The position numbers and the translations under genes are program-made. The notes beneath the pieces were generated by a model. That model had not been told where the DNA came from, ran no database searches, and saw only the letters and a program-made list of their open reading frames with translations. 64,000 nucleotides of DNA from an uncultured Acidobacteriota bacterium (GTDB lineage: Bacteria > Acidobacteriota > Thermoanaerobaculia > UBA5066 > Gp7-AA6). The stretch covers positions 675,224 to 739,223 of the forward strand of contig CAWHTA010000002.1 of assembly GCA_963832145.1 (NCBI GenBank), given 5' to 3'. Positions 14,813 through 47,370 of the stretch are shown here, in pieces (position 1 is the first letter of the stretch; every line of letters starts with the position of its first letter).

Positions 14813-17020
<2,208 letters not shown>

Positions 17021-17119: not shown

Positions 17120-17395
17120 TTACTTCCGGATCCCGAGGCGCTCGATCAACCGGTGATAGCGCGCGAGGTCTTCCGACTTCACGTAATCGAGCAGGCGCCG
17201 GCGCCGGCCGACGAGCTTCAGGAGTCCACGCCGGGAGTGGTGGTCCTTCGCGTTCGACTTGAAGTGCTCGGTCAGGTAAGTGATGCGATTCGTCAGCAGC
17301 GCGACCTGCACCTCGGGCGACCCCGTGTCGGTGTCGTGGGTGCGGTACTGCTGGACGATCGTCGGCTTTTTCTCCCGATGTTCCGTGACGTTCAC
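17120..17395 (-). CDS. rpsO: 30S ribosomal protein S15
   Basis: 91 aa, GTG start after GGAGGA. '[48 protein letters not shown]'. Confidence 0.95.
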
Positions 17396-17460
17396 TGATC
17401 CTCCAACTCTCTACTCACTACTACTTTTTTCAAACTTCGCAGACTAACACAGGACGCAAG

Positions 17461-18390
17461 TCATTCGGCCAGCACGAGCTTGGGGCGGATGAGGGCGATC
17501 CCCCGGGTGCCGATGGGCGTCACCTGGCCGAGCGCGACCATCTCGTCGGACGGGCCGACGAGCGCGACCCAGTCGCCCTCCTTCGATGAGACCCCCCGCG
17601 CCGGGATCGACTGACCCTTGCGGATCTTCCACGTCTCGAGGGAGGCGAGCCGCACCCGCTCGAACGGGAAGTGGACGCGCGAGAGGGGCAGGGCGTGGGG
17701 GCCTTCCAGCCGCTCCGCCGCGGTCATCTGCTCGAAGCGCTCGAGCGGGGCCGCGTTCTCTACGGAGAAGTCGCCGATCCGGGTCCGACGAAGCGATTCG
17801 AGGTGCGCCCCGCAGCCGAGCTTTTCCCCGAGCTCGCTCGCGATCGAGCGGATGTACGTCCCGGACGTGCAGGCGATGGAAAACGGGAGCCGGCCGTCGA
17901 CGGGCGCGCCGAACTCGAGCCGCGAGACGCGGACCTTCTTCGGCATGAGGGGCACCGTCTCGCCCTTGCGCGCCATCTCGTAGAACTTCCGTCCACCGAC
18001 CTTCTTCGCGGAGTAGGGGGGCGGCGACTGGAGAAACTCCCCGCGGAACGCCTCGGCCGCCGCTTCGACAGCCGCCCGATCGACCCCCTCCACGCCGCGC
18101 TCGGTGCCCACCAGCTCCCCCTCGCGGTCGTAGGTTGTCGTCGCGCGTCCGAGCCGGATGACCCCCTCGTACGACTTGTCCATGAGCGTGAAGAAGCCCT
18201 GGAGCCGGGCCGCCTCTCCCGCGCAGAGGAGGAGGAGGCCGGTTGCCATCGGGTCGAGCGTCCCGCTATGGCCGACGCGGGCGACGGAGAGCGCGGTCCG
18301 CACCCGCTCGACGACGTCGTGAGACGTGAGCCCCGCGGGTTTGTCGAGCAGGAAGAGATATCCCCGGCGAAAGGGATCGGCGGCCTTCAC
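17461..18390 (-). CDS. truB: tRNA pseudouridine(55) synthase
   Basis: This is the last 309 codons of track ORF 17461..19071. GTG 18390 overlaps the rbfA stop (GTGA). 'LDKPAGLTSHDVV', catalytic 'GHSGTLDPMATGLL'. Confidence 0.9.
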   Translation of the reverse strand: MKAADPFRRGYLFLLDKPAGLTSHDVVERVRTALSVARVGHSGTLDPMATGLLLLCAGEAARLQGFFTLMDKSYEGVIRLGRATTTYDREGELVGTERGVEGVDRAAVEAAAEAFRGEFLQSPPPYSAKKVGGRKFYEMARKGETVPLMPKKVRVSRLEFGAPVDGRLPFSIACTSGTYIRSIASELGEKLGCGAHLESLRRTRIGDFSVENAAPLERFEQMTAAERLEGPHALPLSRVHFPFERVRLASLETWKIRKGQSIPARGVSSKEGDWVALVGPSDEMVALGQVTPIGTRGIALIRPKLVLAE

Positions 18391-19092: not shown

Positions 19093-21894
19093 TCAGGCTT
19101 CCATCAACCCCGCGGTCTTCTCGATCTGGTACGCCTCGATCACGTCGCCGACCTTCACGTCCTGGTATCGCTCGAGCGCGATTCCGCACTCGAAACCCTG
19201 CTTCACTTCGGAGACGTCGTCCTTGAACCGGCGCAGCGAAGCGATCTTTCCGTCGTAGATGACGCGGTTGTCGCGCAGCAGGCGCACCTGCGAGGAGCGC
19301 GCGACCGAGCCTTCGGTGATGTAGCAGCCGGCGACGACGCCGAACTTCGGAACCTTGAACGTGTTGCGGACCTCGGCGCGGCCCCGGGCGACCTCCTTCA
19401 GCGTCGGGTCGAGGAGCCCTTCCATCGCCTTCCGGATCTCGTCGGTGACGTTGTAGATCACCGTGTGGAGGCGGAGCTCGACGCCGCTCTTCTCGGCCTC
19501 GGTCTCGGCTTTCCTCTCCGGCCGCACGTTGAAGCCGACGATGATCGCGCCGGAAGCCGATGCGAGAAGGACGTCGTTGATGTTGATCGCGCCGACGCCG
19601 ACGTGAAGGAGCGTGACCTTCACCTTCTCGTTGGAGAGGTTCTTCAACGCGTGCGCGAGGACTTCGGCCGATCCGGCGACGTCCGTCTTGACGATCAGGG
19701 GGAGCTCCTTGACCCGGCCCTCCTGGATCTTGTTGAAGAGCTGGTCGAGCGAGAACTTCTGGCTCGCCGCCATCGCCTTGTCCCGGTCCTTCAGCTGACG
19801 GAAGGACGCCACGGAGCGCGCCTTCGCCTCGTCGGGGACGACCTGGAAGGCGTCGCCGGCCTGGGGGAGGTCCTCGAAGCCGGTCACTTCGACCGGAGTC
19901 GCGGGTCCCGCTTCCGTCAGCCGCGCGCCGCGGTCGTCCGTCATGGACCGGACGCGGCCGAAGACCGATCCCGCGAAGAAGACGTCGCCGATCGAGAGCG
20001 TCCCGGACTGGACGAGGACGGTGGACACGTTCCCGCGGCCGGCTTCCCGCCGCGCTTCGAGAACGACGCCGCGCGCCTCTTCACTGACCGAGGCGGTGAG
20101 CTCCTGGAGGTCCGCCACGATGAGGATGAGCTCGAGGAGCTGTTCGATCCCCTGTTTCTTCGTCGCCGAGATCTCGGCGGAGGCGACGTCGCCGCCCCAC
20201 GACTCGAGGAGGACACCCTGGTCCGCGAGCTCCTTGCGCACGCGGTCCGGATTTGCGTTCGGCTTGTCGACCTTGTTTATCGCGACGACGATCGGGACCT
20301 TCGCCGCGCGCGCGTGGTTGATCGCCTCGATCGTCTGCGGCATGACCGCGTCGTCGGCGGCGACCACGAGCACGACGATGTCCGTCGCCTTTGCGCCGCG
20401 GGCGCGCATCGAAGTGAACGCCTCGTGACCGGGCGTGTCGAGGAAAACGATCGGCCGGCCGTTCACCTCGACCCGGTAGGCGCCGATGTGCTGCGTGATC
20501 CCGCCCGCCTCGCCCTCCGCCACCTTGGTCTGGCGGATCGCGTCGAGGAGCGACGTTTTGCCGTGATCGACGTGGCCCATCACGGTGACGACCGGAGCGC
20601 GCGGCGAACGCACGGACGGCTCGGCCGCCACGGTTTCCGACGTCTCCGACCCGCCGCGGGCGAGCTCCATCTCTTCTTCGAACGAAACGACAGCGGCCTC
20701 GACGCCGACTTCCTTGGCGATCTGGATCGCGGTGGGAGCGTCGAGCGTCTGGTTGACCGTCGCGAGGATCCCCCGCTGCATGAGGAGCCGCTGGATGTCC
20801 TTGGCGAGGACGCCGAGCTTCTCCGAGAGCTCCTTGATCGTGACGCCTTCCGAAAGGAAGATCGGACCGGTCGGCATCGGCTTCTTGAACTCGAGGAGCT
20901 TTCCGGAGTCGTGGGCGCGCGTGGACTTCGCCGCGCGACGGAGCGCCGACTTCGACACCGGCTTCGCCTCGGCCACGGCGCCCTCATCGGCCCCTTCGCC
21001 CTTCTCGATGAGAGGAAGGGAGATGTCGGAGTAGGTGTCTTCCTCGTACGCGCCGACGAACTCGCGAAGATCGACCTCGTCCGCGACGGTGATCTTCGGC
21101 TTTGCGCCGCGCTTCGCGGCCGGTTTCTTGTCCTTGTCGTCTTCCTTCTTGCGCTTGGTGACCGGGCGGTCGGTCTCCGGCGGGGGAGCCACGCCGCGTC
21201 CCGCGGCCGGTCCCATCGGCCGTCCCAGGGGACCCGCCGGACGGCCCGTCGGACCGGTGGGACCGGTGGGGCGCAGCGGCATTCCCGCCGGCCTCATGCC
21301 GGGGCCTCCGGGAGTCGGGCGGTACACGGAGGGGGCGGGCCGTCCGGGGGACCCGCTCGCGGGACCCATCGGCCGTGCCGGGCCCATCGGGCGCGTCGCG
21401 CCGGGTGCGGCGGACCGGGCCATCCCCGCGGATGCGGGGGGAGCGGCCGGTCGCGTCGGAACGGTGCGCGGGGGAGGCAGGACGATCTTGCGCGGCAGCG
21501 CCGGCTTCACCGGCTCGGCCTCGGGCTCGGACGGCACGACGGCGGTTCGCGCCGGCTCCGCCGGCTTCGCCTTCGGCTCGGCAGGGGGTGGCGCGGGCGC
21601 CGGTCGCCGCACCGGTTCCGGCTCCGGCTCGGGGCGCGGAACGGCGGGCTTGTCGATGATCTTGATCCGCGACAGCGCGCTCTTCTGCGGGCGGAACGCC
21701 TTCGACTCCGAGTCACGAACGATCAGCTGCTTCGGGGCGTGCGTCTTCCCCTGCAGGATTGCGAGCACGGTTGCTTCGTCGAGCGCCGCCTGCTCCGACT
21801 TGACGTCCACGCCGATCGACTGGAGAAGGAAGAGGACTTCCTTGCTCCCGATCCCCATCTGTGCCGCCAGCTCCTCGACCCGGATCTTTCCCAT
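19093..21894 (-). CDS. infB: translation initiation factor IF-2
   Basis: 933 aa. Pro/Ala-rich N-terminal region, G-domain 'VTVMGHVDHGKTSLLD', 'DTPGHEAF', 'NKVD'. Confidence 0.97.
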   Translation of the reverse strand: MGKIRVEELAAQMGIGSKEVLFLLQSIGVDVKSEQAALDEATVLAILQGKTHAPKQLIVRDSESKAFRPQKSALSRIKIIDKPAVPRPEPEPEPVRRPAPAPPPAEPKAKPAEPARTAVVPSEPEAEPVKPALPRKIVLPPPRTVPTRPAAPPASAGMARSAAPGATRPMGPARPMGPASGSPGRPAPSVYRPTPGGPGMRPAGMPLRPTGPTGPTGRPAGPLGRPMGPAAGRGVAPPPETDRPVTKRKKEDDKDKKPAAKRGAKPKITVADEVDLREFVGAYEEDTYSDISLPLIEKGEGADEGAVAEAKPVSKSALRRAAKSTRAHDSGKLLEFKKPMPTGPIFLSEGVTIKELSEKLGVLAKDIQRLLMQRGILATVNQTLDAPTAIQIAKEVGVEAAVVSFEEEMELARGGSETSETVAAEPSVRSPRAPVVTVMGHVDHGKTSLLDAIRQTKVAEGEAGGITQHIGAYRVEVNGRPIVFLDTPGHEAFTSMRARGAKATDIVVLVVAADDAVMPQTIEAINHARAAKVPIVVAINKVDKPNANPDRVRKELADQGVLLESWGGDVASAEISATKKQGIEQLLELILIVADLQELTASVSEEARGVVLEARREAGRGNVSTVLVQSGTLSIGDVFFAGSVFGRVRSMTDDRGARLTEAGPATPVEVTGFEDLPQAGDAFQVVPDEAKARSVASFRQLKDRDKAMAASQKFSLDQLFNKIQEGRVKELPLIVKTDVAGSAEVLAHALKNLSNEKVKVTLLHVGVGAININDVLLASASGAIIVGFNVRPERKAETEAEKSGVELRLHTVIYNVTDEIRKAMEGLLDPTLKEVARGRAEVRNTFKVPKFGVVAGCYITEGSVARSSQVRLLRDNRVIYDGKIASLRRFKDDVSEVKQGFECGIALERYQDVKVGDVIEAYQIEKTAGLMEA

Positions 21895-34542: not shown

Positions 34543-34617
<75 letters not shown>

Positions 34618-34631
34618 ACTCTTCGAGGCGA

Positions 34632-34707
34632 AGGCGCTTAGCTCAGCTGGGAGAGCGCTACCTTCACACGGTAGAGGTCAACGGTTCGATCCCGTTAGCG
34701 CCTACCA
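34632..34707 (+). tRNA. tRNA-Val (anticodon CAC), CCA encoded
   Basis: Acceptor aggcgct/agcgcct, anticodon stem ctacc/ggtag with loop ttCACac, T-arm aacgg-ttcgatc-ccgtt, a + cca. Confidence 0.9.
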
Positions 34708-42018: not shown

Positions 42019-43584
42019 ATGAACACATCAATCGCGATCTCGATCGCTATGGCGATCATGGCGGTCGCGTTCGCTTTGCTCGCGTACTTTCTCCTCCGGA
42101 GTCAGGTCAAACGCGAGCGCGCGGCGATCCGCGAGGACGCCGACCGCGCCCTGGCGGAGGCCACCCGGGCCGGGGAGGCGAGGCTGCGCGAGGCGTCCAT
42201 CGAGGCGAAGGAGAGGGTCCTCGCCGCCCAGGTGGAGTTCGACAAGACCATCCAGGCCCGCCGGCAGGAAGTGGCCGCTCTCGAGAAGCGGGTCACCCAG
42301 AAGGAGGAGAACCTCGATCGCAAGCTCGCCCAGCAGGAGAAGCGGGACGAGGAGTTCGCCCGCAAGGAGCGGGGCCTCGCCGACGCCCAGAAGGGGGTCG
42401 AAAAGGCGCACGCCGACGCGCTCCAGCTGATCGAGGAACAGCAGCGCCGGCTGGAGCAGATCTCGGGACTGACAGCCGCCGACGCCAAGCGCGACCTCAT
42501 CCGATCGATCGAGAACGAGGCGCGGGTCGAGGCCTCGGGTCTCATGCGGCGGATCGAGGAGGAGGCGACGGAGCAGGCGACCCAGAAGGCCCGCCACCAC
42601 ATCGGAATGGCGATCCAGCGGCTCGCTTCCGATACGGTGGTAGAGGCGACGGTCTCGGTCGTCGAGCTTCCCTCGGACGACCTCAAGGGCCGCATCATCG
42701 GGCGTGAGGGCCGCAACATCCGGGCCCTGGAAGCCGCGACGGGAGTCGACCTGATCATCGACGACACCCCCGAAGCGATCGTGATCAGCGCGTTCGAGCC
42801 GATCCGGCGGGAGGTCGCGAGGCTCGCCCTGGAAAAGCTCGTCATCGACGGGCGAATCCACCCCGCGCGGATCGAAGAAGTCGTCGAGAAGGTGCGGTCG
42901 GAGCTCTGGGAGAAGATCCGGCACGAAGGGGAGGCGACCGCGCTCGAGTTCTCGATCCCGGACCTCCATCCCGAGCTCATCAAGCTCCTCGGTCGGCTGA
43001 AGTACCGGACGTCGTACGGCCAGAACGTCCTCCAGCACTCCAAGGAAGTCGCGTGGCTCGCGACGAGCATGGCGGGGGAGCTCGGAGCCCGGACGGAGGT
43101 CGCGAAGCGGGCGGGACTCCTTCACGACATCGGCAAGGCGATCGACCGGGAGATGGAAGGCACCCACCTCGAGCTCGGCCGCGAGGTGTTGAAGAAGTTC
43201 GGCGAGAACGACGACGTCATTCACGCGATGGAGTGCCACCACGGCGACTACGAGCCGCGATCGCTCGAGGCGGTGCTCGTCAACGGCGCCGACGCTCTCT
43301 CTGCGGCGCGCCCCGGCGCGCGGCGCGAGATCCTCGAGACTTACGTCAAGCGCCTCGAGAAGCTCGAGCACATCGCGGACGGGTTCAAGGGAGTCCAGAA
43401 GGCGTTCGCGATCCAGGCGGGAAGGGAGCTGCGCATCATCGTCGAGGCGAACCGCGTCACCGACGACGAGGCCCTCTGGCTGTCACGGGACATCGCCAAG
43501 AAGATCGAGGCGGAGCTCCAGTATCCCGGTCAGATCAAGGTGACGGTCATCCGGGAGACGAGATCCGTCGAGTACGCGCGTTGA
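42019..43584 (+). CDS. rny: ribonuclease Y
   Basis: 521 aa. N-terminal TM, coiled coil, KH '[15 protein letters not shown]', HD 'GLLHDIGKA'. Confidence 0.95.
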
Positions 43585-43597
43585 CGCGGAACGCGCG

Positions 43598-44380
43598 TTG
43601 AACATCCTCTTCATCGGCGACGTCGTCGGCTCTCCGGGCCGCCGGGCGCTCGAGCGCGGCCTCCTTCCGCTCATCGACAGGCGCAAGGTCGACTTCACGA
43701 TCGTGAACATCGAGAACGCGGCGGGAGGATTCGGGCTCACCGTGGAGCTGTTCGCGGAGCTCTCCAGGCTGCCGATCGACGTCTTCTCTTCGGGAAACCA
43801 CATCTGGGACAAGAGGGAGATCTACGACTCCCTGAATTCGTCGGACCGGCTGCTTCGTCCGGCGAACTACCCGCCCGGAAATCCGGGGCGCGGAGTCACG
43901 GTGCAGCCGACGGCCTCCGGTGTCCCGGTCGGCGTGATGAACCTGCAGGGTCAGGTCTTCATGCCCGCACACGCCGACTCGCCGTTCCGCGTCGCGGACG
44001 ACGAGCTCGCCCGCCTTTCCGAGGTGAAGGTCGTGATCGTCGACTTTCACGCCGAGGCGACGTCGGAAAAGGTGGCGATGGGCTGGTACCTGGACGGCCG
44101 CGTCTCCGCCGTGCTCGGGACCCACACCCACGTCGCCACGGCGGACGAGACCGTGCGGCCGGGAGGGACCGCCTACCAGACGGACGTCGGCATGACCGGA
44201 GCGTACGAGGGCGTGATCGGGTTCGCCCGCGAACGCGTGATCGAGAAGTTCCTCGCCCAGACCCCCAAGTCGTTCGAGACGGCGAAGAAGGACATCCGGT
44301 TGTCCGGCGCGCTCGTCGAGGTCGACGAGGAAACCGGACGCGCCACCGCGATCGAGCGGATCCACGTGAAGGTGGAGTAA
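43598..44380 (+). CDS. TIGR00282 (YmdB-like) metallophosphoesterase
   Basis: 260 aa, TTG start. 'ILFIGDVVGSPGR', 'VNIENAAGGFG', 'DFHAEATSEK', 'GTHTHV'. It follows rny, as in many bacteria. Confidence 0.9.
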   Translation: MNILFIGDVVGSPGRRALERGLLPLIDRRKVDFTIVNIENAAGGFGLTVELFAELSRLPIDVFSSGNHIWDKREIYDSLNSSDRLLRPANYPPGNPGRGVTVQPTASGVPVGVMNLQGQVFMPAHADSPFRVADDELARLSEVKVVIVDFHAEATSEKVAMGWYLDGRVSAVLGTHTHVATADETVRPGGTAYQTDVGMTGAYEGVIGFARERVIEKFLAQTPKSFETAKKDIRLSGALVEVDEETGRATAIERIHVKVE

Positions 44381-44387
44381 AGATGTC

Positions 44388-44453
44388 TTGTCATTCCGAG
44401 GCCGCAGGCCGAGGAATCTGGGCCCAGATCCCTCGCTTCGCTCGGGATGACAG
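44388..44453. repeat. repeat family A, full palindromic copy
   Basis: Arms ttgtcattccgagg / ctcgggatgacag with an inner palindrome ggaatctggg/cccagatcc. The right half is the reverse complement of 13688-13718. Confidence 0.85.
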
Positions 44454-44487
44454 AGCGGGGCAAGAGCCTCGGGTTGAAAATTAGGAA

Positions 44488-45327
44488 ATGCCCCGCGAGA
44501 AGCTTTCGGCCATCGTCACGTCTTTCAATGAAGCAATCAACATCAAGGACTGCCTCGAGAGCGTCTCGTTCGCCGACGAGGTCCTCCTCGTGGACTCCTT
44601 CTCGACCGACGCGACCCTCGATCTCGCGCGCAAGGTTCCCGGCGTGAGAATCCTCCAGCGGCAATACTTCGGCTCGGCAGCCCAGAAGAACTGGGCGATG
44701 GACCAGACAGTTCACCCGTGGATCCTCATCGTCGACGCGGACGAGCGCGTCACGCCGGGGCTCGCGAGCGAGATCGGCGACCTTCTCGAGCAGGGTCCGA
44801 AGGCAAACAACTACTCGATCCGCCGGCGGAACCTCTTTCTCGACCGGCTGATCCGGCACTCGGGATGGTCTACCGACAAGGTCGTCCGCCTCCTTCGTCG
44901 CGGCGCGGCGCGGTATCCGAAACGGCGGGTCCACGCGGACATTCAGCCGGAGGGCGAGGCTCCGATCCTTCAGAATGCACTCCTCCACTACACGTTCCGC
45001 TCGCTGGGCCAGTACCTCGAAAAGCTCCACCGGTACGCCGAGTGGGGAGCGGCCGACGCGTACCGCAAGGGGAAGCGCGTCGGAGCGGTCGAGCTCTTTT
45101 TCCGCCCGATGTGGCGGTTCATCCGGATGTACGTCTTCCAGGCGGGCTTCCTGGACGGCCGCCACGGTCTCGTCCTCTGCATGCTGCAGGCTTACGGTGT
45201 GTTTCTGAAGTGGGCGAAGCTCTGGGAGTGGCGGCGGTTCGACAAGAACGGCTGGAAGTTCGAGCTTCCGGCTTTCGACGATTCGGAAGAGACTTGGCAG
45301 GGAGGCGCGGCGAAGGCCGCGGAGTGA
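44488..45327 (+). CDS. glycosyltransferase family 2 (LPS-core-type)
   Basis: 279 aa. 'LSAIVTSFNEA', 'LLVDSFSTDAT', 'ILIVDADERV'. Confidence 0.85.
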   Translation: MPREKLSAIVTSFNEAINIKDCLESVSFADEVLLVDSFSTDATLDLARKVPGVRILQRQYFGSAAQKNWAMDQTVHPWILIVDADERVTPGLASEIGDLLEQGPKANNYSIRRRNLFLDRLIRHSGWSTDKVVRLLRRGAARYPKRRVHADIQPEGEAPILQNALLHYTFRSLGQYLEKLHRYAEWGAADAYRKGKRVGAVELFFRPMWRFIRMYVFQAGFLDGRHGLVLCMLQAYGVFLKWAKLWEWRRFDKNGWKFELPAFDDSEETWQGGAAKAAE

Positions 45328-45821
45328 ACGTGTTCGGAAAGAAGTCGGGTCCGCTTCCGCTCTCGCCGGGCGACGACGCGCCGGAGTTCTCGCTGCCCGA
45401 CCACACGGGGACCGTCCGGAGCCTGTCGGAGTTTCGTGGACACCCGGTCGTCCTCTGGTTCTATCCGGCGGCAAACACCCCCGGGTGAACGATCGAGGGG
45501 CGCGGGTTCCGCGCTCTCGCCAGGGAGTTCGAGGATGCGAACGCGCAGATCCTCGGGGTCTCGTTCGACTCGGTGCCCGCGATCGCGAAGTTCGTGCGCA
45601 AGGAGGGCTTTCCCTTCCCCCTCCTGTCGGACGCGGAGCGCGTTTGCGGGCTCGCGTACGGAGCCGCTGACACGGCGGAAGCGCGGTCCGCGCGGCGCAT
45701 CTCCTACGTGATCGGCTGGGAACCGGACGGGAAAGCGAAGATCCTCGCCGCCTACCCCACGGTCTCGGTCGCGTCCCACGCTCGCGAGGTGCTCGACTTT
45801 CTCTCGAGCAGCCGCGCGTAG
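45324..45821 (+). CDS. Bcp/PrxQ-type peroxiredoxin with in-frame TGA (45486-45488) at the peroxidatic-Cys position; candidate selenoprotein
   Basis: The tail of track ORF 44718..45488 and ORF 45573..45821 are in the same frame and are separated only by one TGA. The joined protein is about 165 aa: ...DAPEFSLPDHTGTVRSLSEFRGHPVVLWFYPAANTPG-U-TIEGRGFRALAREFEDANAQILGVSFDSV...FPFPLLSD. GTG 45324 overlaps the upstream stop. Confidence 0.7.
45495..45518 (+). promoter_or_regulatory. candidate bacterial SECIS hairpin
   Basis: The upper stem gcgcgg/ccgcgc (45500-45514) starts 11 nt after the TGA. The apical loop is G/U-containing (gguuc/guu). The outer pairs gag/ctc add bulges. Confidence 0.45.
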
Positions 45822-46855
45822 AACTCGCGGGCCGCGGCGGCAAACGGCGCCGCGCCGAACTCATGCGCGCGCGCGCGGCCGAGTTGGCCCATCTCTGCCC
45901 GCAGCGCCGGTTCGTTTCGCAAACGTTCGAGCGCCTCCACGAAGTCGGAGGCCGCGGTGACGACGAAACCCTCGCGCCCGTCCGTGACGAGGTCCCGCAC
46001 TCCCGGCACGTCGAGCGCGATGACCGGCACTGCCGAGGCCATCGCCTCCAGGAGCGCGCGCTGCCCCTGCTCCGAGCCGGAGGCGGGGAACAGGAAGACG
46101 TCCATCGCGCGGTAGAGCTCGGGCAGGTCCTCGTCGGCGTATCCGGTCCAGACATTGCGCTGCGCCGCCCCGAGCGCGGCGGCGCGGGCCTCGAGCTCGG
46201 GTCGCAGCTCTCCCTTGCCGACGTGGAGCAGGACGACGGACGGAATCGCCGCGGCCGCCTCGATCGTTTCGCGGTGCCCGCGCCCGGCCGCGATTTTGCC
46301 AACCGTTCCGACGACGAGGGCCCCGTCGGGAACGCCGAGCGAACGGAGACGCTCGATCGGCTTGACTCCGGGCGCATAGCGGTCCGCGTCGACAACCGGC
46401 GGCTGGACGGGTCCGTCCCCGCCGAACTTCTCGGCGACCGCCCGATTGGCGAAGGCGAACGCGTCCGTCCGCCGGAAGAGCCACCGGGTGAGCGGATCGC
46501 CGCGGGCGTGGTCGATGTTGTGAATCGTGCGCACCACGAGAGGGGAGCCGGAACGGCGGGCCGCTACCGCCGTGTAGTGATCGTGCGAGGAGTGGCAGTG
46601 GACCACGTCGAAGAGCTCGCGGTCGATCGTCCGTTTGAGCTCCCGCACGTCCCGGGAGAAGCGCAACCGATCGCGGGCCGGGGAGAGAATCGGCCGCGCC
46701 CATCCGAGCGGAAGGAGTCGCGCGGCAAGGGGGCTGTCCCGCGGAAACCCGAACTGGGTCTCGACCCCGGCCGCGACGAGCGCGGCCGTCTGGTCGAAGG
46801 CGACGGCCGCGGCGCCGGTCCACTTCTCGCCCGCGACGAGGTGGAGGATGCGCAT
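45752..46855 (-). CDS. glycosyltransferase family 4
   Basis: This is the last 367 codons of track ORF 45752..47278, from ATG 46855: MRILHLVAGEKWTGAAAVAFD... E-x7-E region 'SEQGQRALLEAMASAVPVIALDVPGVRDLVTDGREG'. Confidence 0.85.
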   Translation of the reverse strand: MRILHLVAGEKWTGAAAVAFDQTAALVAAGVETQFGFPRDSPLAARLLPLGWARPILSPARDRLRFSRDVRELKRTIDRELFDVVHCHSSHDHYTAVAARRSGSPLVVRTIHNIDHARGDPLTRWLFRRTDAFAFANRAVAEKFGGDGPVQPPVVDADRYAPGVKPIERLRSLGVPDGALVVGTVGKIAAGRGHRETIEAAAAIPSVVLLHVGKGELRPELEARAAALGAAQRNVWTGYADEDLPELYRAMDVFLFPASGSEQGQRALLEAMASAVPVIALDVPGVRDLVTDGREGFVVTAASDFVEALERLRNEPALRAEMGQLGRARAHEFGAAPFAAAAREFYARLLERKSSTSRAWDATETVG

Positions 46856-46863
46856 GGTTCGGG

Positions 46864-47370
46864 TCAGCTTCTCAGGAGAATCCGGGCACCCACCGCGGCC
46901 AGAATCAAGGCGAGTGCGATGCGAAGCTCGAGCGAGAGCGTCGGAATCGAGTTCGGTACCTGCCCGGGCAGCACCGTCATCACGAGGGTTCCTGGAATCA
47001 GCTTCTTCCCGGAATCCGAGACGGTGATCACCTGGTCTCCAAGAGTTCGAAGGACGACCGAGAACCCCTTGGTGCCGCGGTCGGCCGGGACGAAGGTGTA
47101 ACCCGCGGGAAGAGTCGCAAGAGGATCCGAGCTCGAGAAAATCAGCGTGCCGGAGTAGTCCGTGTCGGGTCCGAGGGCTGCATCGACTGCCGCAACGTAG
47201 ATCCCGAATTCCGCCCCCGAGACGGCCGTCGTCGGGAGTGGCGGCGGCGTGTCGGGGCAGAGTGCGCCAAAGGCACAAGGGCTGCTCGTAACGAGAAAGC
47301 GCACGGCAGGCTCGCCCCGGGCCGCCAGAGGCAGAATCACCAGGCCAACCAGGATCAGGAACCGCTTCAT
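46864..47370 (-). CDS. small secreted protein with IPTL-CTERM-like C-terminal sorting signal
   Basis: I chose ATG 47370 (MKRFLILVGLVILPLAARG, signal peptide). The ~120-aa beta-rich domain is followed by 'IPTLSLELRIALALILAAVGARILLRS', which is the IPTL motif, a TM helix and a basic tail. Confidence 0.7.
   Translation of the reverse strand: MKRFLILVGLVILPLAARGEPAVRFLVTSSPCAFGALCPDTPPPLPTTAVSGAEFGIYVAAVDAALGPDTDYSGTLIFSSSDPLATLPAGYTFVPADRGTKGFSVVLRTLGDQVITVSDSGKKLIPGTLVMTVLPGQVPNSIPTLSLELRIALALILAAVGARILLRS

Follow-up and report, generated by a model that had tools for sequence, protein, structure and literature searches.

The window analysed here is a stretch of 64,000 nt from an uncultured Acidobacteriota bacterium of the Thermoanaerobaculia (assembly GCA_963832145.1, contig CAWHTA010000002.1, positions 675,224 to 739,223 of the forward strand), and it carries a peroxiredoxin gene, here called prx, whose reading frame contains a single in-frame UGA. 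Our conclusion, drawn from assembled sequences and their comparison, is that this UGA (45486-45488) very probably encodes selenocysteine (Sec) in the active site of the peroxiredoxin, and we put the probability of this reading at roughly 0.92. The gene is a new member, from an uncultured member of the Thermoanaerobaculia, of a known selenoprotein family, and it has a typical bacterial selenocysteine insertion sequence (SECIS). An earlier sequence-only reading of the same DNA had proposed prx as a candidate selenoprotein gene; that proposal is now supported by the conservation of the TGA, by purifying selection on both halves of the gene, by a covarying hairpin and by a spacing between UGA and hairpin like that of Escherichia coli fdhF.

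Positions 45324-45821 of the forward strand form one frame in which the TGA is the sole interruption, exactly as the sequence-only reading had described it: two open reading frames (ORFs) in the same frame, split by one codon. In the ORF listing, the N-terminal piece stops at the TGA and runs artificially upstream to 44718 across a neighbouring gene, and the C-terminal piece corresponds to 45573-45821. The read-through product carries the sequence WFYPAANTPG-U-TIEGRGF and matches the Pfam family AhpC-TSA (PF00578) over residues 15-131 (1.2e-30; 106 bits, cut-off 26) as well as Pfam Redoxin (2.9e-19). Among NCBIfam models, Bcp PRK09437 (89.8 bits) and PrxQ (83.4 bits) score best, each short of its equivalog cut-off (140 or 260), and models of the AhpC, Tpx and Prx6 types give 20-52 bits. 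The best solved structures are all Bcp/PrxQ proteins, aligned over nearly the full length (PDB 5epf, 5iox, 5iiz and 3gkk; E 1e-23 to 1e-21). The TGA had been said to replace the Cys of the PxxxTxxC motif, and it does align to the peroxidatic Cys (Cp) of these structures, with R123 aligned to their active-site Arg; the PxxxTxxU motif and R123 are both invariant in alignment A1. On these matches, the product is a peroxiredoxin of the Bcp/PrxQ subfamily (COG1225), with a predicted thiol-dependent peroxidase activity.

Relatives were collected by a protein search, after which GTDB species genomes and Joint Genome Institute (JGI) metagenomes were scanned with an alignment of six Sec-type proteins; the scans added 160 loci, and 165 loci were compared in total. 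Many of these nearest loci come from JGI metagenomes and metagenome-assembled genomes (MAGs), and nearly all that are named belong to Acidobacteriota MAGs (Thermoanaerobaculia, Terriglobia, Vicinamibacteria and Candidatus Marinacidobacterales). The codon at the Sec position is TGA in 152 loci (92%), TGC in 10 and TGT in 3, and it is never TGG. Alignment with Cys orthologues, a check that the sequence-only reading had suggested, thus finds 13 of the 165 loci with a Cys codon in place of the TGA. These Cys forms are scattered among the Sec forms: one (L046) is 86% identical to a Sec-type protein (L048), and two others (L059 and L096) are 91% identical to the Sec-type L112. Repeated interconversion of Sec and Cys is known in selenoprotein families (PMC1794560), and the scattered Cys forms fit that pattern. 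Two of the assignments deserve mention in their own right. The Cys-type L059 comes from a MAG of the myxobacterium Hyalangium sp. and yet is 91% identical to an acidobacterial-type Sec copy, and a typical Sec-type copy (L070) lies in a bin labelled 'Patescibacteria group'; horizontal transfer or mis-binning is possible in both cases.

The sequence downstream of the TGA also retains the marks of a protein-coding gene. Compared with the nearest relative (L010, 85% identical, from a Thermoanaerobaculia MAG), the part of prx after the TGA shows 80 identical codons, 18 synonymous and 13 non-synonymous, the upstream half is comparable, and alignment A1 has invariant columns along its full length on both sides of the TGA. 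Judged from these codon and column patterns, the sequence 3' of the TGA is evolving as coding DNA, and both halves are under purifying selection. The sequence-only reading had named independently truncated halves in orthologues as an outcome that would speak against a selenoprotein; what the orthologues display is the contrary. Among database entries, seven relatives (P0007, P0009, P0012, P0056, P0058, P0059 and P0096) exist as C-terminal fragments of 90-105 aa beside N-terminal fragments of 52 aa, and two (P0001 and P0002) are full-length with W at the Sec position; the DNA of these split or W-bearing entries has TGA at exactly the Sec codon. Apart from the two entries with W, most relatives are stored as such a pair of fragments.

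Immediately 3' of the UGA lies a hairpin (Table 1). Its core, gcgcgg-guu-ccgcgc at 45500-45514, has a 6-bp stem of G+C pairs and can be extended to 45495-45518, just as the sequence-only reading had reported, except that the extension contains one unpaired base. The core begins 11 nt after the UGA and its GUU loop 17 nt after it, and the codons of the hairpin spell E-G-R-G-F-R-A-L. By definition, a bacterial SECIS element is a stem-loop that follows closely on the UGA and has a G in its small apical loop (PMC1088965), and the hairpin in the window has this form. Folded alone, the 26-nt hairpin reaches -15.5 kcal/mol (z = -2.5), a value that 3 of 200 shuffled sequences equalled.

The stronger evidence for the hairpin is comparative. 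Alignment A2 contains 146 distinct 48-nt segments, each starting at the TGA, with pairs numbered from the U of UGA. Across 144 distinct sequences the nine-pair structure is formed in 91.1% of cells, against 39-55% when the partners are slid by 1-3 columns, and both sides change together in three pairs (42 cells), giving a covariation score that none of 500 shuffles reached. Pair 17-27 is G-C in 101 sequences, C-G in 24 and A-U in 8; pair 15-29 is U-A in 108 and G-C in 5, and the window is among these five. The codon five residues after the peroxidatic position (Cp+5), which lies on the hairpin, is TGC (Cys), CGC (Arg) or TCC (Ser), and where it is TCC the Arg codon three codons further on, in the 3' arm, switches from CGC to CGG. 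Codons of the loop are nearly fixed in the Sec forms (Gly as GGG in 134 of 146, Phe as TTC in 138 of 141), whereas they vary in 12 Cys forms (GGC 5, GGG 3, GGA 2 and GGT 1 for Gly; TTC 7 and TTT 5 for Phe). The comparison of the Sec-type L112 with the Cys-type L059 is telling in this respect: the synonymous changes GGT to GGC, TGC to TGT and GAC to GAT destroy the hairpin in the Cys form.

Not every Sec-type relative has the standard hairpin: a minority, most of them Terriglobia, lack it and have an alternative one about 5 nt further downstream (columns 19-37 of alignment A2). One form of it, form B, occurs in L054, L060, L067, L084, L088, L148, L150 and L135, and another, form C, in L153-L155; an example of the shifted hairpin is GGAUUC-CGUGAUC-GAAUCC, with the loop CGUGA(UC), and 11 sequences can form both hairpins. 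The presence of two hairpin positions within one protein family looks like SECIS turnover. In the window itself, a second predicted hairpin at about 45541-45558 was set aside, because its pairing looked weaker, by eye, in one relative (L001).

Several results weigh against reading the UGA as Sec. In this 69% G+C DNA, the 50- and 91-nt contexts of the hairpin fold no better than shuffled sequences (z -0.6 and -1.05), and the evidence that the hairpin exceeds chance is therefore comparative. The hairpin also lies in a conserved coding stretch (E-G-R/C/S-G-F-R-D), so that its conservation is partly at the protein level; what counts for the RNA structure are the synonymous sites and the compensatory changes. 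No Rfam SECIS family was found in the whole window at the gathering threshold, nor in 45440-45580 at E <= 10, where chance matches to small RNAs and microRNAs were the only hits. The Rfam SECIS models derive from a small number of other selenoprotein genes, and we place little weight on the missing match. Finally, ARAGORN found no tRNA-Sec in the 64-kb window or in the fetched loci (1.6 Mb), and tblastn with E. coli SelA, SelB and SelD (from NC_000913.3) as queries found no selA, selB or selD in the window or in the 1.6 Mb of related loci. The single SelB-like tblastn match proved to be translation initiation factor IF2 (infB, 19093-21894, minus strand, next to nusA) and was rejected. Sec use nevertheless has indirect support, because Acidobacteria are documented Sec users (listed as such in PMC1794560 Table 2, with Occallatibacter riparius in PMC12013277 Table 2) and because second Sec-peroxiredoxin genes are present in two contigs. 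In these Acidobacteriota MAG contigs, the first gene is accompanied, at a distance of a few kb, by another Bcp-like gene that contains an in-frame TGA (L071:~17384-17900 and L079:~15680-16195, both on the plus strand); this second gene has an apparent signal peptide, the motif WVVLYFYPKDFTGG-U-TLEAH and, after the TGA, the hairpin UCCAG-CGUGAU-CUGGA.

The lack of hits to Sec machinery in the sequences searched is also what favours the most serious of the alternatives, namely that the lineage has lost this machinery, that the UGA now terminates translation and that prx is a decaying or silent relic. Bacteria often lose the Sec trait (PMC1794560), and no Sec machinery was seen in the 64-kb window. 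A decaying gene, however, is hard to reconcile with an ORF that is intact on both sides of the TGA, with more synonymous than non-synonymous codon differences after the TGA relative to a protein 85% identical, and with an intact hairpin that has a compensated pair of its own, G-C at 15-29 where most relatives have U-A. We consider a relic improbable. Less probable still is an origin of the TGA in faulty sequencing or assembly, or in a recent nonsense mutation, which would make prx an ordinary Cys-peroxiredoxin gene or a pseudogene. The codon is indeed one base away from TGC and TGT, the sequence is known from assembly alone, and Cys forms do occur in the family, but the same TGA recurs in 152 loci that were assembled independently of one another, from many samples and MAGs, which means that error cannot explain the codon. 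Moreover, the covarying hairpin goes with the TGA and is missing from the Cys forms, and purifying selection acts on the frame beyond the TGA.

The notion that UGA is a sense codon here, as in alternative genetic codes in which it specifies Trp (table 4) or Gly (table 25), draws what support it has from P0001 and P0002, the two database proteins with W at the Sec position. These JGI entries (L005:405-881 and L006:235-702) read TPGWT and were translated with a code in which TGA is Trp; since the DNA of L005 and L006 has TGA, the W calls are translation artefacts. With Trp or Gly as its peroxidatic residue the enzyme would be inactive, and the relatives have Cys there but never TGG. TGA is the ordinary stop of 19 of the 26 confident ORFs in the window, including those for RNase Y, IF2 and the glycosyltransferase upstream of prx, which excludes an alternative code; the residual chance that we would grant it is smaller than for either of the other two alternatives and close to nil. 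A screen of the 64 kb for in-frame TGA codons with coding-like flanks likewise returned the prx TGA as the only internal case. Three other candidates (10527, 51551 and 53594) were plainly the ends of adjacent genes in the same frame, and a fourth (26524, minus strand) was judged by eye alone.

If the UGA is read as Sec, a mechanism can be proposed. During translation, SelB loaded with Sec-tRNA(Sec) would bind the hairpin at 45497-45517, which presents G and U in its apical loop. SelB would compete with release factor 2 at the UGA and bring Sec to it, after which the ribosome would unwind the hairpin and read its codons as E-G-R-G-F-R. In the finished protein, Thr50 and Arg123 would activate the selenolate of Sec53, which would attack and reduce the peroxide substrate (H2O2 or an organic hydroperoxide) and so become a selenenic acid. 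How the enzyme would be regenerated depends on the resolving Cys, and at the two positions where Bcp enzymes have this residue (Cp+5 and helix alpha3) the window protein has Arg and Val. Among the Sec forms, 66 have Cys at Cp+5, 44 have Arg, 27 have Ser and 12 have Lys, Asn or another residue; in the subclade of the window this residue is always Arg. The window protein has a single Cys, C106, which is not a conserved residue, and three relatives (L005, L017 and L019) are without any Cys. Because Cp+5 is Arg throughout the subclade and no other Cys is conserved, the window enzyme most likely belongs to the 1-Sec type and depends on an external thiol for its recycling; a partner such as thioredoxin or glutaredoxin could re-reduce it directly. 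The relatives with U-x4-C would instead form an intramolecular selenenylsulfide. We infer the SelB dependence, the selenium content, the enzymatic activity and the reductant of the window protein.

Sec-containing peroxiredoxins of the COG1225/Bcp type, with the motif TxxU, are an abundant selenoprotein family that has been catalogued since 2005 (PMC1088965, PMC1794560, PMC5029168, PMC13188914 and PMC12013277 supplement file 3). Each subsequent census has included them, with counts of 12 genes (PMC1794560) and of 91 genes in 78 organisms (PMC5029168), and the family also appears in the table of a 2026 review (PMC13188914). Its reference sequence is WP_011365628.1 of Geobacter metallireducens (...FYPKDSTPGUTKEANGFRDL...; PMC12013277 supplement file 3). 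The window protein is 40% identical to this reference over the full length; Sec aligns with Sec, FYP...TPG-U-T.E..GFR is shared, and both have the Bcp/PrxQ fold and no resolving Cys at +5. The Geobacter protein has no Cys at all, as is the case for several close relatives of the window protein. The two differ at Cp+5, which is Arg in the window and Asn in Geobacter, and in lineage (Thermoanaerobaculia against Geobacter); the comparison is one of the proteins alone. The solved Cys-type Bcp/PrxQ proteins (5epf, and the Xanthomonas-type 'bacterioferritin comigratory protein' of 5iox, 5iiz and 3gkk) share the fold and the active-site Thr and Arg with the window protein, but they have Cys instead of Sec and a resolving Cys either at +5 (alpha2) or in alpha3 (NFCAKQGF in 5iox).

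Another Sec-peroxiredoxin, PrxU of Eubacterium acidaminophilum (Sohling et al. 2001, cited in PMC13188914), is the sole member of this kind known to have been shown by experiment to contain selenium. PrxU and the window protein are alike as peroxiredoxins whose peroxidatic residue is Sec; PrxU belongs, however, to another peroxiredoxin subfamily (motif FTFVU, ~230 aa), and the window protein fails NF040737, the model of the clostridial selenoperoxiredoxin PrxU (40.2 bits against a cut-off of 270). With regard to the RNA element, the likeness to the fdhF SECIS of E. coli (NC_000913.3) that the sequence-only reading had proposed was borne out: both elements lie inside the coding sequence, with 11 nt from the UGA to an upper stem that is rich in G+C and is capped by a small loop, and the window hairpin is conserved with compensatory changes. 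The apical G and U occupy positions 21-23 from the U of UGA in the window and 22-25 in fdhF. The sequences are unrelated, though; the loop reads GGUC in fdhF and GUU in the window, or GGUUC there with the closing pair open, and nothing in the window hairpin obviously corresponds to the bulged U of fdhF.

The positions of the features of prx are collected in Table 1. The sequence-only reading had described a complete read-through protein of ~165 aa with a start at 45324; the family assignment stands, but the start and the length do not. The 5' ends of ten relatives, when aligned, all begin with M-F-G/R-K/R, matching the GTG at 45330, two codons downstream of 45324, and we place the start there because the N-termini of the relatives align at this codon and a GGAG lies 6 nt upstream of it, so that the protein has 163 aa. 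The upstream gene, which encodes a glycosyltransferase of family GT2, stops with TGA at 45325-45327. Since the GGAG lies inside the 3' end of the GT2 gene and prx begins 3 nt beyond the GT2 stop, the two genes are likely to be co-transcribed.

Table 1. Features of the prx gene (positions in the window)
Feature	Position	Strand	Details
Sec-type Bcp/PrxQ peroxiredoxin coding sequence	45330..45821	+	163 aa; GTG start, TAG stop; one internal UGA, read as Sec53
Putative Shine-Dalgarno-like GGAG	45320..45323	+	6 nt 5' of the GTG; read directly from the sequence
Active-site motif P46-A-A-N-T50-P-G-U53	45465..45488	+	PxxxTxxC with Sec for Cys
UGA codon, peroxidatic residue, probably read as selenocysteine	45486..45488	+	
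SECIS-type hairpin	45497..45517	+	9-bp stem 45497-45505/45509-45517; apical loop GUU 45506-45508
Arg123 codon (RISYVI), peroxiredoxin active-site Arg	45696..45698	+	Invariant column; aligned to R of solved Bcp structures

The wider surroundings of prx are shared with a relative. Genes for RNase Y, a YmdB-like phosphoesterase, GT2 and prx form a string on the same strand (42019-45821, plus), in which the 3-nt distance from the GT2 stop to prx suggests co-transcription of prx with cell-envelope and RNA-turnover genes, and the 27.7-kb contig L001 has the same order as the window: RNase Y, YmdB, GT2, prx and then a convergent GT4 gene. The 3' end of prx overlaps this convergent GT4 glycosyltransferase ORF (45752-47278, minus strand) tail to tail by 70 nt (45752-45821), and an identical 70-nt overlap is present in L001 (10207-10276) and in L007 (283-352). 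Elsewhere in the window, the Rfam scan at the gathering threshold returned two tRNA-Val genes only; these are in tandem, 14 nt apart, with the anticodons GAC and CAC (34543-34707, plus strand).

The window gene brings no new principle, and its main practical value lies in correct annotation: the two ORF fragments, or the 'pseudogene' that they would otherwise become, should be merged into one selenoprotein of 163 aa with a translation exception at 45486-45488. Public protein sets contain Sec-PrxQ as fragments or with a false Trp, which would bias selenoproteome surveys that are based on predicted proteins. The 146 SECIS variants constitute a clean natural data set on the changes that are tolerated in recognition by SelB. 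Since the SECIS includes the very codons for the position of the resolving Cys, switches between U-x4-C and U-x4-R/S would need joint changes in coding sequence and RNA structure, as exemplified by TGC..CGC becoming TCC..CGG or CGC..CGC. We would give about even odds to the broader proposal that the Acidobacteriota PrxQ clade is almost wholly Sec-dependent in the sample and that its switches between 2-Cys and 1-Sec types needed such coordinated changes. The prx gene marks its source organism as a probable selenium user, and if the dominance of Sec proves to be general, selenium use in the Acidobacteriota would be greater than catalogues built from annotated proteins suggest.

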